Source of the DNA: a virus | Lineage: Duplodnaviria > Heunggongvirae > Uroviricota > Caudoviricetes | Strand: one strand, 5' to 3' | Virus record (IMG/VR): IMGVR_UViG_2698536535_000003 | Length of the DNA: 10,462 bases | In this document: piece after piece, positions 437 to 8,486 of the stretch | Layout of the letters: each line of letters begins with the position of its first letter | How positions within the stretch are numbered: position 1 is the first letter of the stretch | The notes under the pieces: generated by a model | The model's input: only the letters and a program-made list of their open reading frames with translations | Told to the model about the DNA's origin: nothing | Databases searched by the model: none | Translations under genes and position numbers: made by a program

Positions 437-1600
437 TTACACATCATTAGTACCTTCCTTATTTTTTGACTGGGACAAATTTGGGACCGATGGGTTCAGG
501 ATCGAGTCTATTTGCCGTGCGTGTTCGGTAAGGTGATTAGGTGCAAGGTGAGCATATCGACGAACCATTTCGATAGACTCCCAGCCTCCCATTTCCTGTA
601 ACACTGACAACGGGACTCCGGCTTGAACCAGCCAACTTGCCCAGGTGTGTCTCAAGTCGTGAAATCTGAAATCATCAATACCAGCCCGTCTCAGAGCCGC
701 TTTCCAGGCTGTGTTTGCGTCATACCGCATCTTCCTTACTGTTGGCGCTTTCGTTCCGTCTGGTTTGGTACAGCTTTCCTTGTACACAAATACCCAACGG
801 TGATGATTACCGATTTGTTTTTTCAATACGCGACATGCAGTATCATTCAGCGCAACGCCAATTGCGCGGTTTGATTTACTCTCTTCCGGGTTTATCCATG
901 CCACCCGGCGCTGCATATCTATTTGTTGCCATTCAAGGTTGATGATGTTCGAGCGTCTTAAGCCTGTTGCCAGTGCAAATTCAACAACAGACTTTAATGG
1001 CTCCGGACATTCATCAATCAGCCTTTGTGCTTCATGGGGCTCCAGCCAGCGGATCCGTTTATTCTTTGGTTGAGGCACTTTAATAATTGGTGCCTTATCG
1101 AGCATTTTCCATTCACGCTCTGCGGCTCTTAGCAGGGCCTTTATAAATGAAAGATGCGTAGCCTTCGTTGCAACGGACGCTGGTTTTGGCGTGTATTCTG
1201 GAACAGGTTTCCCTTTTTTTCTGCATGCTTCTGCCCTGAGTTTCCAGTTTTCCTCATGACGCCGGTTCGTCATTTTCTGCATTGCTGAATAAATTTTTGA
1301 TTCAGTAATGTCTCTTAGTTGCATTCCTGCGAAATGTTGAAGCCAGAATCCGATCCGGCTTTTGTCATCGTCCAGTGATTTCTTATGTGCTTTCTCTTCG
1401 AGCCACCTGACACACGCTTCCTCAAACGTCATATCAGGTATTTCACCAAGTTTGCTGACCCGCCATGCTTCAGCCTTTAGCTTGTCATGGAGCTCTGTCG
1501 CCTGCCTTTTGTCCTTTGTTCCAAGAGACTGTTTAAATCTTTTACCGTTCGGCAATGTGAAACTGGCGTACCATATTTCACTTCTGCGGAAGAGTGACAT
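437..1600 (-). CDS. int: Tyrosine-type site-specific integrase (P22 Int-like, 387 aa)
   Basis: ORF-track protein with C-terminal catalytic-region motifs ([10 protein letters not shown]..., [33 protein letters not shown]). From memory it is near-identical over its length to phage P22 Int. ATG at 1600 with AGAGGAAAG upstream; TAA stop at 437..439. Confidence 0.95.
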
Positions 1601-2733: not shown

Positions 2734-3291
2734 TCATGCAGCCTCCCGACGGGCAAGAATCCTTGAGCCGAACGCCATCAACTCTCCACGATCAACGGTC
2801 GTAAAGTGGCAGTGTGTACGGGGGTATGGGTGCCAGATAATGAGCATCGAGCCTTTATTATTTCCACTGACGGGTTTCTCAGTGAGTGGGTTAATAAATG
2901 CCAGTCGTCCTGCCGTGATGAATCTGACCTCACTGGCGGTTTGTATCGCTTCATGAAACCATCCGACAGATGTGTCAGCAGGCAATAACATTACACATCC
3001 CACACTACTGAATTTGTTTTCAGTGGCTGCCTTTTTCACAAAAGGGGAAATATTGCTGTATGGTGGATTCAACCAGACATAACCAGAGGCATATCCCATT
3101 GCTTCAGGCCATGAAGTGGTTAATGTGTTCTGCTCCTGTGAGATAAAAAGCCGACATAGTCGGTTTTTTTCGCTGGCGGCAGCATCAAGTTGAAAAACGA
3201 ACTCTGCATTAAGCGCAGCAAAAATCTCTGGTGGTGTGCGCCAGCTGTCGCGATGTTCGGCAGGAGTATTGCTTCCGGTGAAATCAGTCAT
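2734..3291 (-). CDS. Phage-type DNA N6-adenine methyltransferase (orphan, no cognate restriction enzyme in window)
   Basis: 185-aa product with NPPY catalytic motif (WLNPPYSN) and an N-terminal region (RDSWRTPPEIFAALNAEFVFQLDAAA) typical of small phage Dam-like amino-methyltransferases. ATG at 3291. Confidence 0.8.
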   Translation of the reverse strand: MTDFTGSNTPAEHRDSWRTPPEIFAALNAEFVFQLDAAASEKNRLCRLFISQEQNTLTTSWPEAMGYASGYVWLNPPYSNISPFVKKAATENKFSSVGCVMLLPADTSVGWFHEAIQTASEVRFITAGRLAFINPLTEKPVSGNNKGSMLIIWHPYPRTHCHFTTVDRGELMAFGSRILARREAA

Positions 3292-3445
3292 ACAGCCCCC
3301 GTTTATTATTTATCGCCTCAGCCAGCCGCTGTGCTTTCAGTGGATTTCTGATAACAGAAAGGCCGGGAAATACCCAGCCTCGCTTTGTAACGGAGTAGAT
3401 GAAAGTGATCGCGCCTACCCGGATATTATCGTGAGGATGCGTCAT
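3284..3445 (-). CDS. Small hypothetical protein (53 aa), translationally coupled between exo and the methyltransferase
   Basis: Hand translation from ATG 3445..3443 gives [53 protein letters not shown], stop TGA at 3286..3284. Its ATG overlaps the exo stop (ATGA), and GGGGAG lies 8 nt upstream. Below the length cut-off of the ORF track. Position is analogous to the small orf immediately downstream of exo in lambda. Confidence 0.5.
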
Positions 3446-4122
3446 CGCCATTGCTCCCCAAATACAAAACCAATTTCAGCCAGTGCCACGTCCATTTTTT
3501 CGATGAACTCCGGCACCATCTCGTCAAAATTCGCCATGTACTTTTCATCCCGCTCAACCACGACATAATGCAGGCCTTCACGCTTCATACGCGGGTCATA
3601 GTTGGCAAAGTACCAGGCATCTTTTCGCGTCACCCACATGCTGTACTGCACCTGGGCCATGTAAGCCGACTTTATGGCCTCGAAACCACCGAGCCGGAAC
3701 TTCATGAAATCCCGGGAGGTAAACGGGCATTTCAGTTCAAGGCCATTGCCGTCACTGCATAAACCATCGGGAGAGCAGGCGGTGCGCATACTTTCGTCGC
3801 GATAGATGATCGGGGATTCAATAACATTTACGCCGGAAGTGAACTCAAACAGGGTTCTGGCGTCGTTCTCGTACTGTTTTCCCCAGGCCAGTGCTTTAGC
3901 GTTAACTTCCGGAGCCACACCGGTGCAAACCTCGGCAAGCAGGGTGTGGAAGTAGGACATTTTCATGTCAGGCCACTTCTTTCCTGAGCGGGGCTTTGCT
4001 ATCACGTTGTGAACTTCTGAAGCGGTGATGACGCCGAGCCGTAATTTGTGCCACGCATCATCCCCCTGTTCGACAGCTCTCACGTCGATCCCGGTACGCT
4101 GCAGGATAATGTCCGGTGTCAT
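3442..4122 (-). CDS. exo: Lambda-type 5'-3' exonuclease (Red alpha, 226 aa)
   Basis: Protein begins [40 protein letters not shown] and ends GFVFGEQWR; from memory near-identical to lambda Exo at the same length. ATG at 4122 overlaps the bet stop (ATGA). Confidence 0.97.
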
Positions 4123-4904
4123 GCTGCCACCTTCTGCTCAGTGGCTTTTTGTTTCAGGAATCCAAGAGCTTTCACTGCTTCGGCCTGTGTCAGTTCTGAC
4201 GATGCACGAATGTCGCGGCGAAATATCTGGGAACAGAGCGGCAATAAGTCGTCATCCCATGTTTTATCCAGGGCGATCAGCAGAGTGTTAATCTCCTGCA
4301 TGGTTTCATCGTTAACCGGAGTGATGTCGCGTTCCGGCTGACGTTCTGCAGTGTATGCGGTATTTTCGACAATGCGCTCGGCTTCATCCTTGTCATAGAT
4401 ACCCGCAAATCCGAAGGCCAGACGGGCACACTGAATCATGGCTTTATGCCGTAACATCCGTTTGGGATGCGACTGCCACGGCCCCGTAAATTCTCTGCCT
4501 TCGCGGGTTTTGAATGGTTCGCGGCGGCATTCATCCATCCACTCGGTAACGCAGATCGGATGATTGCGGTCCTTGCGGTAAATCCGGCATGTACAGGATT
4601 CATTGTCCTGCTCAAAGTCCATGCCATCAAACTGCTGGTTTTCATTGATGATGCGGGACCAGCCATCAACGCCCACCACCGGAACGATGCCATTCTGCTT
4701 ATCAGGAAAGGCGTAAATTTCTTTCGTCCATGGATTAAGGCCGTACTGGTTGGCAACGATCAGTAATGCGATGAACTGCGCATCGCTGGCATCACCTTTA
4801 AATGCTGTCTGGCGAAGAGTGGTGATCAGTTCCTGTGGGTCGACAGAATCCATGCCGACACGTTCAGCCTGCTTCCCAGCCAGCGTTGCGAGTGCTGTAC
4901 TCAT
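4119..4904 (-). CDS. bet: Lambda-type single-strand annealing protein (Red beta, 261 aa)
   Basis: Protein begins [11 protein letters not shown] and ends [11 protein letters not shown]; from memory near-identical to lambda Bet at the same length. ATG at 4904. Confidence 0.97.
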
Positions 4905-4909
4905 CCGTT

Positions 4910-5206
4910 TTATACCTCTGAATCAATATCAACCTGATGGTGAGCAATGGTTTCAACCATGTACAGGATGTGTTCTGCCATGCGCTCCTGAAACTCAACA
5001 TCGTCATCAAACGCACGGGTAATGGCTTTTTTGCTGGCCCCGTGGCGTTGCAAATGATCGATGCATAGCGATTCAAACAGGTGCTGGGGCAGGCCTTTTT
5101 CCATGTCGTCTGCCAGTTCTGCCTCTTTCTCTTCACGGGCGATCTGCTGGTAGTGACGCGCCCAGCTCTGAGCCTCAAGACGATCCTGAATGTAATAAGC
5201 GTTCAT
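4910..5206 (-). CDS. gam: Gam, host RecBCD inhibitor, short form only (98 aa)
   Basis: [21 protein letters not shown]...[10 protein letters not shown] matches lambda GamS from memory. ATG at 5206 is preceded by AGGAGG with a 6-nt spacer. The reading frame upstream is closed by an in-frame TAA at 5261..5263 with no intervening start codon, so the longer lambda-style ORF cannot be made here. Confidence 0.95.
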
Positions 5207-5281: not shown

Positions 5282-5692
5282 TTAGTGATTTAGGCCGTTG
5301 CCGCGTCCGTCGAGAAAAACTTCCACGAGCAAATCACGGGTATAAGTGCGCTCGATGCCGCGATGCAGATATAGCCGTCCGCGTAAATTAGCTGATGCAG
5401 TCCAGGTACCATCTTTGTGTTTGACCAGCATTCCTGGCATGACCGCACCGCGATTAACGGTCTGCGTTCCGTAATGTTGATGAACCATAAAAACTCCTGC
5501 CCGTAAGCTGGGCTGCTGAACATATATAGACTTCTGCGCGTATTCAGGCGGTGGATGGCCGCCGGTTGTCATAACTAAGCCGCCTCGTTGAAGCGACTGA
5601 GGTATGAAGTGTTGAGTTGATTTCAGCTGGTCACACCGACGTTCACGCGTCCGCTTCACCCCTCGCACTCCCCGGAGCCTGCTGAAATTCAA
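5282..5692 (-). CDS. Hypothetical protein in the first position of the pL operon (N slot); arginine-rich N-terminus; start codon uncertain
   Basis: ORF-track frame starts at a TTG (5692); candidate GTG starts at codons 8 and 11 and an ATG at 5572. N-terminal segment [15 protein letters not shown] is arginine-rich, loosely like ARM motifs of N antiterminators. No family recognised. An alternative-frame ORF (5290..5523) overlaps it. Confidence 0.35.
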
Positions 5693-5710
5693 GCTGCGGA
5701 TCTAAGCGGT

Positions 5711-5760
5711 CATCGCAACGGTGAATCAGGTGGTTGCCGTATCGTTGTGTTGTTGCGATG
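5711..5760. repeat. 9-bp perfect inverted repeat (CATCGCAAC ... GTTGCGATG) with 32-nt spacer in the pL leader region
   Basis: CATCGCAAC at 5711..5719 and its exact reverse complement GTTGCGATG at 5752..5760. Lies between the putative pL and the first early-left ORF. Confidence 0.5.
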
Positions 5761-5766
5761 AATTTA

Positions 5767-5830
5767 TTTAAAACTATAGTTGTTTTATCGTCAACAACAA
5801 AAGTTGTTTTACTGGTTGTTTTAGATATAA
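5767..5830 (-). promoter_or_regulatory. Putative pL promoter with overlapping oL operator half-sites
   Basis: On the minus strand TTGACG (5794..5789), 17-nt spacer, TTAAAT (5772..5767). The region carries repeated GTTGTT/AACAAC half-sites (AGTTGTTttatcgtcAACAAC, AGTTGTTtt, ACTGGTTGTT x2) that match the arms of the oR palindrome at 8424..8448. Confidence 0.4.
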
Positions 5831-5928
5831 CTGGTTGTATTTAGGATGGATTTATTTTGTGACTTGCATCGCATAGCGATAACTGAAGGGATGTCGTGGT
5901 GGTTATTTGAACGGTTTGTGTGATGAGG

Positions 5929-5961
5929 GGAGGCAAAAGAAAACCCGGCACGGTGGCCGGG
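5929..5961 (-). terminator. Intrinsic (rho-independent) terminator closing the repressor-moron operon
   Basis: GC stem CCCGGC (5944..5949) / GCCGGG (5956..5961) with a 6-nt loop; on the minus-strand RNA it is followed by UUUUCUUUUG (plus-strand 5929..5943 is A-rich). Lies 36 nt downstream of the DUF3037-like gene stop. Confidence 0.75.
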
Positions 5962-5996
5962 TTATTAATAAGGAATATCACATACAAAAATAAATT

Positions 5997-6824
5997 TTAA
6001 ACTTGGGGAAGTATTTTTTTTGCAAAATCAATAGTTTCTTTGTGGTTGGATGCAGGTATATGATTTATTTTCTTAGCATCCATAGTTCTCTTTATGATGT
6101 CAATAACTTTGCTTTGGCCTGAGTTTGGTGATTCAGGAGTTTCAATTGTGAATAAAATGTCATCAAGTGAAAGCAGGTTTTCTTCTGCTGCTCGAGTTAT
6201 TCTCATCACCCAAGTATCACTATGCTCCATCATTTTTCCTGGTTCAGCTTGAGTGAATGCCAGAGGTTTGATGGCACATTGGATCCTGTCATGCTTCTTG
6301 GCGACCAATGGCATTGAGAACTTTGCGAAATACCCATCAATGGTTGCTTGTTTGAAGACGTTCTTCAATCCATCTATTCTATCGATACTTCGTTTTAGCT
6401 CTCTGGCTAGAACATCTTCACGGCGCTCTTTTGTGTAGTCAGAGTGGTTTACATATTTATTGTAAATGCGGGCCAGCTCTTCTTTTGGGTTTTCGCTGAG
6501 AATCACTCTCGTAGAACTGAACTGAAAAATTGATTCTTTTTTGTTTGTAAAATATCTGAAGAATTGTGCAAGTTGTTGATGTCCAACAATCTGGGTCGCA
6601 TGCATTTTTGCGAATTGTAGTTCTCTTTGTATTGAGTCTTTTGCTACAGGGAAAATACAATCATCATGGAAAAAATTCTTTACACGAGAGTCATTTCGCT
6701 TTGTGAGCTGGAAATCAAAGTAATTTTCTTTTGGCGCGCACAGAAGTACGCCTATGTTTGCGAACTCTTCAGTCTCCGCATAAGGCGCATAGCGAACGAT
6801 GCTATATAGGCATGGAGTTGTCAT
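5997..6824 (-). CDS. DUF3037-like protein (275 aa), second gene of a two-gene moron
   Basis: Track ORF starts at a TTG (6839); ATG at 6824..6822 overlaps the stop of the upstream gene (ATGA). The N-terminus MTTPCLYSIVRYAPYAETEEFANIGVLL resembles the conserved N-terminal signature I recall for DUF3037-family proteins. GC content is about 33% in sampled 60-nt windows versus about 55% in bet. Confidence 0.7.
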   Translation of the reverse strand: MTTPCLYSIVRYAPYAETEEFANIGVLLCAPKENYFDFQLTKRNDSRVKNFFHDDCIFPVAKDSIQRELQFAKMHATQIVGHQQLAQFFRYFTNKKESIFQFSSTRVILSENPKEELARIYNKYVNHSDYTKERREDVLARELKRSIDRIDGLKNVFKQATIDGYFAKFSMPLVAKKHDRIQCAIKPLAFTQAEPGKMMEHSDTWVMRITRAAEENLLSLDDILFTIETPESPNSGQSKVIDIIKRTMDAKKINHIPASNHKETIDFAKKILPQV

Positions 6825-7570
6825 TCTATTGCGCTCCAAAATTCATCACAATCACCTTTGTCTAGCGTAGTGCAGACAAAAGGTAAAAACTCCTCATCTA
6901 CTATCCACTCTTCTGGAATTTCGTCAAGGATAGCAGGAAGCTTGTGTAAACTGTTAACGACCCTCTGGCGGTACTCTACGCGATCCACTAAATCATATTG
7001 CCATTTGCGGTTACCAGGGCCGTACACGTGCACAGAAAAATCTTCAGGTCCAGCATTCTGATCAAATGAGAGATTATGGTCAATCAGATAATACTTATCG
7101 TTACTGATGTCATAAAGGATGTTAACGTTTCCACCTTTGTCAGTAAGCGTTCTGTCTGCATTTAATATCCATTTATCAAAAACATAGATTAATTTTTGCT
7201 GTTCGACTGGGATGATCGTTTCGTTTCTTGACTGCGTAAACGTTAACGCTATTGCACCGTCAATGAACAATGAAGCAAAGGCATATCCTGTACAAATTTG
7301 TTGCTGCAGATCAGGTGAGTACTCTATAAGTTCCTCTGGCACAAATACGATTTTAAAGTCAGGTAAAGGAAGGCCGATATCATTAGCCAAACATGCCGAA
7401 ATGAACTCAGCTAAGAGATTTTTCGGGGGCATTGATGGTTTTGACTTCAAAACATACAACTGCCCATCATCACATTTGCAAAGAAATGGCTGAGTGGAAC
7501 CTTCATTGATGCGACGTATTACCTCAACGACATTAGGTATTGCACTATTGCTGCTCGCTACGCACTCCAT
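6821..7570 (-). CDS. Atypical protein kinase-fold protein (HipA/PI3-4K-like motifs, 249 aa), first gene of a two-gene moron
   Basis: Track start is a GTG at 7573; the second codon is ATG (7570..7568) with AAGGG 6 nt upstream. Motifs: a nucleotide-binding-like N-terminal segment (INEGSTQPFLCKCDDGQLYVLKSK, with Lys in YVLK), a catalytic-loop-like FDKWILNADRTLTDKGGN, and a downstream LIDHN metal-binding-like segment. Stop TGA at 6823..6821 overlaps the next start. Confidence 0.65.
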   Translation of the reverse strand: MECVASSNSAIPNVVEVIRRINEGSTQPFLCKCDDGQLYVLKSKPSMPPKNLLAEFISACLANDIGLPLPDFKIVFVPEELIEYSPDLQQQICTGYAFASLFIDGAIALTFTQSRNETIIPVEQQKLIYVFDKWILNADRTLTDKGGNVNILYDISNDKYYLIDHNLSFDQNAGPEDFSVHVYGPGNRKWQYDLVDRVEYRQRVVNSLHKLPAILDEIPEEWIVDEEFLPFVCTTLDKGDCDEFWSAIE

Positions 7571-7692
7571 CACTAACCCTTATGTGATTCAAGTCTTCCA
7601 TCTCATTACTCCGCATCTCAAAGAGCGGTTTAACACTGCGTGTTTAAAGAAAAACAACAGGCCTATTGCTGTAACTGTTTTTTAGCCTCACT

Positions 7693-8382
7693 TTAACCAT
7701 GCTTCCTATATGTTTGCGGCATGCTCCCAATAACCTTACCGAAGATGAACACCCGGTTCATCTCGTCTTTCTCGATCGGGTCCCACGGTGAGTAGCTCTT
7801 GTTATCAGAAATAACCAGCAGCTTATCCTTCATCATTTGCAGGCGCTTTACATGGGCGGTGTCGTCATACAGAAACGCATAGATACCATCACCGTCGAAA
7901 GATTTAACCGTGATATCAACGAACAGCAGATCACCTGGTTCGATCGTTCCTGACATGCTGTCACCACGCACGTTAATGATGCGGATATTTTCTGCCTTCC
8001 TACCATCGAACATGTGACGAGCATCGTCAAACGAGTACTCAACCGAGCGTAGAACTTCTACAAACTCACGGTTGATGACTCCCGGCCCGGCACTCACTTC
8101 TATATCAAGAACGTCAATCTTAAAGTATTTGGAATGGCTGACAGTTGATTGTATTGGTTGCACTGTACTGTCTGACATATTTCCAACGCCAGAAGATAAC
8201 CATTCTGCGCGCACACCCAAAGCGTTCGCGATCTCCACGATTTTAGTTGTTTGGTTAGCTTTCCCTGTTTCGATTTTCTGAATAGCAGCTTGGCTAACCC
8301 CGACCAAATCCCCAAGCGCCTTTTGTGTAAGGCCTCGCGCTAATCTGGCTTCTTTAAGTCTTTCTGAGAGTGTTGTTTTCAT
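7693..8382 (-). CDS. cI-type prophage repressor: N-terminal HTH-XRE DNA-binding domain plus C-terminal S24 (LexA-like) autopeptidase domain
   Basis: From ATG at 8382..8380: MKTTLSERLKEARLARGLTQKALGDLVGVSQAAIQKIETGKANQT (HTH), then VRGDSMSGTIEPGDLLFVD (Ser nucleophile) and AHVKRLQMM (catalytic Lys). The track start at 8448 adds 22 N-terminal residues with no support. No SD before the ATG. Confidence 0.85.
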   Translation of the reverse strand: MKTTLSERLKEARLARGLTQKALGDLVGVSQAAIQKIETGKANQTTKIVEIANALGVRAEWLSSGVGNMSDSTVQPIQSTVSHSKYFKIDVLDIEVSAGPGVINREFVEVLRSVEYSFDDARHMFDGRKAENIRIINVRGDSMSGTIEPGDLLFVDITVKSFDGDGIYAFLYDDTAHVKRLQMMKDKLLVISDNKSYSPWDPIEKDEMNRVFIFGKVIGSMPQTYRKHG

Positions 8383-8486
8383 AGACCAAATGTACAACCA
8401 AGGTTTTATTACATCAAACGAAAATGGTTGTTGACTAAAAACAACCATGGTTTTAATCTTGATTCAGATTAACCACGGAGGTTGTT
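8383..8486. promoter_or_regulatory. Divergent immunity control region (oR operators with pRM-like and pR-like promoters)
   Basis: Perfect palindrome ATGGTTGTT-N7-AACAACCAT at 8424..8448 overlaps a plus-strand TTGACT (8431..8436) with a 17-nt spacer to TAATCT (8454..8459), then GGAGG (8477..8481) and the cro ATG at 8487. On the minus strand TTGATG (8417..8412), 17 nt, TACATT (8394..8389) ends 6 nt before the repressor ATG. An additional half-site-like ACAACCAaGGTT sits at 8394..8405. Confidence 0.55.

Follow-up and report, generated by a model that had tools for sequence, protein, structure and literature searches.

The HipA_2 kinase and DUF3037 gene pair behind the cI repressor of a lambdoid Escherichia coli prophage: identity with the HipAD (DS-6) anti-phage proteins

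The locus considered here raises a simple question: what is encoded by the two genes that lie directly behind a cI-type repressor gene, in the position that rexA and rexB hold in lambda? The genes lie in a window of 10,462 nt (the whole stretch of DNA that was analyzed; IMG/VR record IMGVR_UViG_2698536535_000003), which covers the early-left genes and the immunity region of a lambdoid E. coli prophage. A sequence-only reading had proposed that the pair is a kinase-based defence module, and identical proteins are indeed reported to defend against phage Bas1 in a manner that depends on residue D139 of the kinase. We consider it very probable (about 0.93) that the pair is the HipAD anti-phage system (DS-6; PDC-M66), carried as an accessory "moron" cassette after cI in the rexAB position, and we refer to the genes as hipA and hipD throughout. 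HipAD is already known, having been published as DS-6 / HipAD in 2025-2026; no new system is added here because these exact proteins have already been cloned, tested, and named.

Layout of the early-left and immunity region

The features of the window are collected in table 1. Two co-oriented minus-strand genes had been placed directly after the cI-type repressor gene, and their ORF coordinates were confirmed, although the ORF listed mechanically for hipA begins one codon earlier, at GTG 7573 (250 aa). The ATGA overlap between the genes, already taken as a sign of translational coupling, can be read in the sequence, and the identical 4-nt overlap is present in 10 of 10 homologous loci (L005-L014). 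This arrangement is predicted to couple hipA and hipD translationally.

The gap between cI and hipA was scanned on the minus strand for terminators and promoters, and neither a terminator nor a good match to the sigma-70 consensus was found; its predicted RNA folds no better than shuffled sequences (z = +1.27). Since these 122 nt lack a terminator, it is plausible, judging from the sequence, that in the lysogen transcripts started at the cI promoters read through into hipA and hipD, which would then be co-transcribed with cI. The published DS-6 clone functioned from its own upstream region (PMC13092281).

At the other end of the unit, the intrinsic terminator that the sequence-only reading had described is real, its folding being better than that of 199 of 200 shuffles (z = -3.05). 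It begins 33 nt past the hipD stop codon, however, and not 36 nt, and its limits are those of table 1 rather than 5944-5961. A similar division applies to base composition. The pair is low in GC (hipD 39.0%, hipA 40.9%) and the flanking Red genes are high, with 50-53% in exo/bet/gam/kil, as had been stated, whereas the repressor gene has 45.1% GC and not the 50-55% attributed to it.

The repressor matches Pfam HTH_3 (E 6.5e-13) and Peptidase_S24 (E 1.5e-18) and is annotated as cI in Escherichia phage PhiR5_1. Its ORF as listed, and also as annotated in PhiR5_1 (251 aa), carries a 22-aa N-terminal extension that overlaps oR-like repeats ACAACCAnGGTTTTA at 8394-8408 and 8441-8455. The true start is probably ATG 8382 (MKTTLSERL...). 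In strain GPEC1354, the RefSeq repressor gene is shorter, at 693 nt. Placing a pL/oL-like region past the terminator also proved reasonable: operator-like repeats AACnAnAGTTGTTTTA start at about 5770-5860, and the direct repeats AACTATAGTTGTTTTA and AACAAAAGTTGTTTTA there are related to the ACAACCAnGGTTTTA repeats at oR.

Table 1. Features of the 10,462-nt window
Feature	Coordinates	Strand	Description
Integrase	437-1600		
exo, bet, gam	3442-5206		
kil	5282-5572		
oL/pL-like operator repeats	about 5770..5860		left edge of immunity region
Intrinsic terminator	5942..5963	minus	8-bp stem, 6 G-C pairs, U-run; closes cI-hipA-hipD unit
hipD	5997..6824	minus	ATG start, 275 aa; DS-6B, PDC-M66B
ATGA stop/start overlap hipA/hipD	6821..6824	minus	minus strand reads AATAGAATGACAACTC
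hipA	6821..7570	minus	ATG start, 249 aa; HipA_2-family atypical kinase; DS-6A, PDC-M66A
cI-hipA gap	7571..7692	minus	122 nt; no terminator-like structure
cI-type repressor	7693..8448	minus	HTH_3 + Peptidase_S24; directly upstream of hipA-hipD, same strand
cro, cII, replication gene O		plus	

Two further features of the early-left region are recorded here. Between the pL/oL-like region and kil (window positions 5573-5770) there is no N-like ORF, although related prophages have N there. Positions 5710-5719 and 5752-5761 of this leader form a perfect inverted repeat of 10 bp (TCATCGCAAC/GTTGCGATGA); the overall RNA fold of the leader is unexceptional (z = -1.28), and an Rfam scan of the whole window gave zero matches. 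It is possible that the leader acts by RNA-based antitermination of the HK022 put type. The second feature is a minus-strand ORF of 185 aa at 2734-3291, the positional counterpart of a PhiR30_1 gene annotated "DNA N-6-adenine methyltransferase." It could have an anti-restriction function, and no link to HipAD is implied. An N6-adenine methyltransferase of phage Bas51 has been reported to trigger a retron (retron study, PMC12548924).

The two proteins and their relationship to published systems

Several observations identify the pair. First, HipA and HipD are exact string matches to the DS-6A (WP_000389051.1) and DS-6B (WP_000210934.1) sequences in the supplement of the DefensePredictor study (Science 2026, PMC13092281). 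HipAD/DS-6 and the locus in this window therefore have the same proteins (100%), gene order, overlap, and prophage position, and there is no difference at the protein level. Second, over its 1764 nt the region shares 99.8% identity with the corresponding DNA of PhiR5_1 (PV340545.1), in which a "HipA toxin" and a "HipD antitoxin" are annotated between kil and cI; 4 synonymous changes in the DNA leave both proteins unaltered. Third, both proteins match the profiles of PDC-M66, a two-gene phage-defence candidate in PADLOC (HipA to PDC-M66A, E 5.8e-15; HipD to PDC-M66B, E 4e-16, over almost the whole protein). The locus thus combines a HipA_2 kinase gene, a DUF3037 gene immediately downstream in the same orientation, and identity to proteins that have been tested.

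In the DefensePredictor work, DS-6 on a low-copy plasmid lowered the plating of Bas1 about 10^5-fold; the -log10 EOP was 3.9 in the screen and, on retesting, 5.18 for the wild type versus 0.88 for the D139A mutant (PMC13092281). D139 is the aspartate of the NADR motif (aa 137-140), is present here, and is invariant in 43 homologues. The sequence-only reading had singled out this same aspartate for mutation, and the published substitution does lose most of the protection. The authors propose a toxin-antitoxin-like abortive mechanism, and their AlphaFold3 models give an A-B interface ipTM of 0.76-0.79 with a weaker contact to DNA (PMC13092281). The same paper equates DS-6 with the HipAD system of Brenes & Laub 2025 (Cell Host Microbe 33:1004) and states that this system emerged independently from a screen for defence functions encoded by prophages (PMC13092281).

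A second published pair bears on the locus. A HipA-like/DUF3037 pair beside Retron-Sda1, classed as PDC-M66, provides stand-alone defence against Bas51; deletion of its kinase gene abolishes defence and deletion of its DUF3037 gene is toxic (PMC12548924). It resembles the pair described here in its two domains and its PDC-M66 class, and it differs in being embedded in a retron operon and in the phage that was tested, Bas51. The statement that HipA-like/DUF3037 pairs have no characterized function consequently does not hold, given the publication of DS-6 / HipAD and the testing of the homologous pair in the retron study.

The assignment of the first protein to an atypical HipA/PI3-4K-like kinase family had been made from its motifs, and that of the second to DUF3037 from its N-terminus; both are borne out by profile searches, with E values far beyond chance. 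HipA matches the Pfam family HipA_2 (PF20613, "HipA-like kinase") with E 9.9e-77, over aa 15-248 of the 250-aa ORF and 1-239 of the 240 profile positions, and HipD matches DUF3037 (PF11236) with E 8e-24 at its N-terminus (aa 7-125). All the kinase residues that had been named are invariant in the 43 homologues, namely K42 (YVLK), D132/N137/D139/R140 (DKWILNADR), N148/N150, and I163-D164-H165-N166 (LIDHN), the key residues being K42, D139 (catalytic), N148, and D164. HipA also has the HipA/PI3-4-kinase-like catalytic fold. Its fold matches include PI4K type II alpha and Helicobacter pylori CtkA (13.6 each), the HipA_C-domain kinase 7wcf (12.8), Shewanella HipA (12.4), HipT (11.8), and E. coli HipA (11.2). 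By eye, VFDKWILNAD139...N148...YYLID164 aligns with VFQWLIGATD309...N314...TPFYD332 of E. coli HipA. An hhalign profile comparison with E. coli HipA was not significant, with a probability of 18% over 24 columns in the alpha-C helix region only. The catalytic residues were therefore mapped from the fold match, the by-eye motif comparison, and the published D139A result. Because fold and motifs match and the profile-to-sequence comparison is not significant, we describe the protein as a minimal HipA-fold kinase and not as a canonical HipA. Searches by sequence found no relative of HipA or HipD among solved structures, and no NCBIfam model matches either protein.

The fold matches leave room for a different substrate. 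HipA might phosphorylate a lipid, a nucleotide, another small molecule, or a nucleic acid, rather than a protein, to block the phage, and the fact that PI4K2A, which is a lipid kinase, ties for the best fold match speaks for such an activity. The authors of the DS-6 study describe DS-6A as a HipA-related Ser/Thr kinase (PMC13092281). We regard a non-protein substrate as unlikely.

Two better known systems can be set aside. Canonical E. coli HipA is a protein of 440 aa with N-terminal domains, whereas HipA here has 249 aa and lacks them; in Pfam, the domains of full-length HipA (N-terminal and HipA_C) were not found, and only HipA_2 matches. Canonical HipBA has a small HTH protein, HipB, encoded upstream, whereas the partner here is a DUF3037 protein encoded downstream; no upstream HTH antitoxin of HipB type was found, the upstream HTH gene being that of the phage repressor with its S24 peptidase domain. 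On these grounds (no HipA N-terminal domains, no HipB, a downstream partner), we reject a canonical HipBA type II toxin-antitoxin system; the differences listed also separate the pair from HipBST of E. coli. Glutamyl-tRNA synthetase is the known substrate of canonical HipA. Lambda RexAB, for its part, shares with HipAD the arrangement of two same-strand genes directly after cI with a terminator before oL/pL, as well as the property of prophage-encoded anti-phage defence. We nonetheless reject homology: Pfam and PADLOC gave no Rex-family match for either protein, and the equivalence is one of position only. RexAB is described as a sensor and a membrane ion channel, unlike the kinase system here.

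The remaining half of HipD deserves closer attention. From about aa 132 to 271, it comprises an alpha/beta domain with a helix-strand-strand-strand-helix-strand core, and across 55 homologues E136, P172, A184-I185-K186-P187, F190, Q192, H201, and W205 are kept. On the basis of this predicted core, the C-terminal half may adopt a restriction-endonuclease-like fold that lacks the catalytic acids: the positions of the PD...(D/E)xK acids, as set by the order of secondary-structure elements rather than by structural superposition, correspond to 173 (L/F) and 184 (A), which are acidic in none of the 55 homologues. Because these positions are never acidic, the nuclease-like domain would be non-catalytic. 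A Foldseek search of HipD against the PDB gave no match reaching significance. DS-6B has been described as DUF3037 plus DUF1829, with an HHpred probability of 0.78 for DUF1829 (PMC13092281). We do not adopt this label because Pfam DUF1829 is absent at E <= 1 in 55 of 55 homologues.

Distribution of the pair and the slot after cI

Of 5426 complete E. coli genomes, 284 contain both genes in full at no less than 99% identity, in every case on the chromosome. The order S24 repressor, HipA_2, DUF3037 (with the 4-nt overlap), and then N or kil recurs across prophages, with HipD identities of 49% in E. coli/P22-like, 84% in Klebsiella, and 48% in Proteus prophages. Homologues thus lie next to prophage repressors in E. 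coli, Klebsiella, and Proteus, but not in Pseudomonas and Sphingomonas, in which the HipA_2/DUF3037 pair does not adjoin a repressor.

The sequence-only reading had also described the slot, in the rexAB position, as a classic site for superinfection-exclusion morons, and other two-gene cassettes do occupy it in sibling phages. The part of the window from 5929 to about 5969, which holds the terminator, matches on its own a further 123 E. coli genomes as well as PhiR68_2 and PhiR30_1, all of which lack hipAD. The terminator is apparently a backbone element of the phage, lying where the cargo slot ends on its left side, and not a part of the hipAD cassette. In PhiR68_2 and PhiR30_1, the same terminator bounds other two-gene cassettes. 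Since its contents differ between phages that share the terminator, the slot after cI behaves as an exchangeable defence-cargo site.

The contents of the slot in these phages were recorded individually. In PhiR68_2 (PV340576.1; L002:5035-6490), the cassette encodes proteins of 341 aa and 149 aa from genes overlapping by 20 nt, and neither protein matches Pfam or PADLOC; it may be an undescribed defence candidate. In PhiR30_1 (PV340558.1; L003:5042-6396), the slot holds a DUF6932 protein and a 310-aa protein, which match PADLOC PDC-M63A/B with E 8e-36 and 4e-42. In Proteus prophages, variable cargo lies just past N, downstream of the HipA_2/DUF3037 pair, and comprises a RelA_SpoT-domain protein in one case (L012:7571-8698) and a ClpP-like protease in the other (L011:7710-8249).

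A model for HipAD action

We propose the following model for how HipAD may act. HipA would be a small atypical kinase that serves as a growth-arresting effector, and HipD, translated from the overlapping downstream gene, would hold it in check, presumably by direct binding. In the lysogen, transcription reading through from the cI promoters would supply both. When a susceptible phage infects, HipD would cease to inhibit HipA, and the freed kinase would then phosphorylate a target such that phage production is blocked, probably through abortive infection. The assignment of the toxin role to the kinase fits the genetic data, because removing the DUF3037 gene proves toxic in the homologous pair, whereas defence disappears when the kinase is deleted. 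This mechanism is less secure than the identification of the system, which nothing contradicts.

The way in which infection might be sensed can be suggested more tentatively. The C-terminal domain of HipD may be nuclease-like, would have lost nuclease activity together with its two metal-binding acids, and retains an invariant E136...P172...A-I-K186-P core; conceivably it is the infection sensor and releases the kinase on binding phage DNA, or on binding a DNA-mimicking or DNA-acting protein of the phage. We attach limited confidence to this proposal. If it is true, HipAD would be a toxin-antitoxin system whose kinase toxin is controlled by an inactive nuclease, and it would be co-transcribed with cI in the prophage.

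The HipAD model can be compared with two further explanations, which address the role of the module and the division of labor between its proteins. The pair could instead be an addiction or stabilization toxin-antitoxin module that keeps the prophage in place, with protection against phages being a side effect or an artefact of plasmid-based expression. Its toxin-antitoxin-like organization and the toxicity that follows deletion of the DUF3037 gene in the homologous system (PMC12548924) are compatible with addiction, and the reported defence data all come from plasmid clones in MG1655, none from a lysogen (PMC13092281). Against it, the protection is about 10^5-fold, is phage-specific, and needs the catalytic residue of the kinase; moreover, the slot carries other defence candidates in sibling phages, such as PDC-M63 in PhiR30_1, and HipAD was, according to the citing paper (PMC13092281), found independently in a prophage-defence screen. 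We consider simple addiction to be very improbable. Still less probable, by a little, is a reversal of roles in which HipD, as a nuclease, is the effector and the kinase is either its regulator or a sensor of infection, since none of the 55 homologues has an acidic residue at position 173 or 184, Foldseek gives HipD no significant match, and it is removal of the DUF3037 gene that is toxic, whereas deletion or inactivation of the kinase abolishes defence. All three alternatives, including the non-protein substrate considered above, are less likely than the toxin-antitoxin-like model of HipAD.

The interest that remains in HipAD itself lies in the target of the kinase, in the trigger, and in the roles of the DUF3037 and nuclease-like domains of HipD. 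The cassette that occupies the slot in PhiR68_2 may be the more novel lead. More generally, defence cassettes can be found reliably by inspecting what lambdoid prophages carry in the slot after cI.
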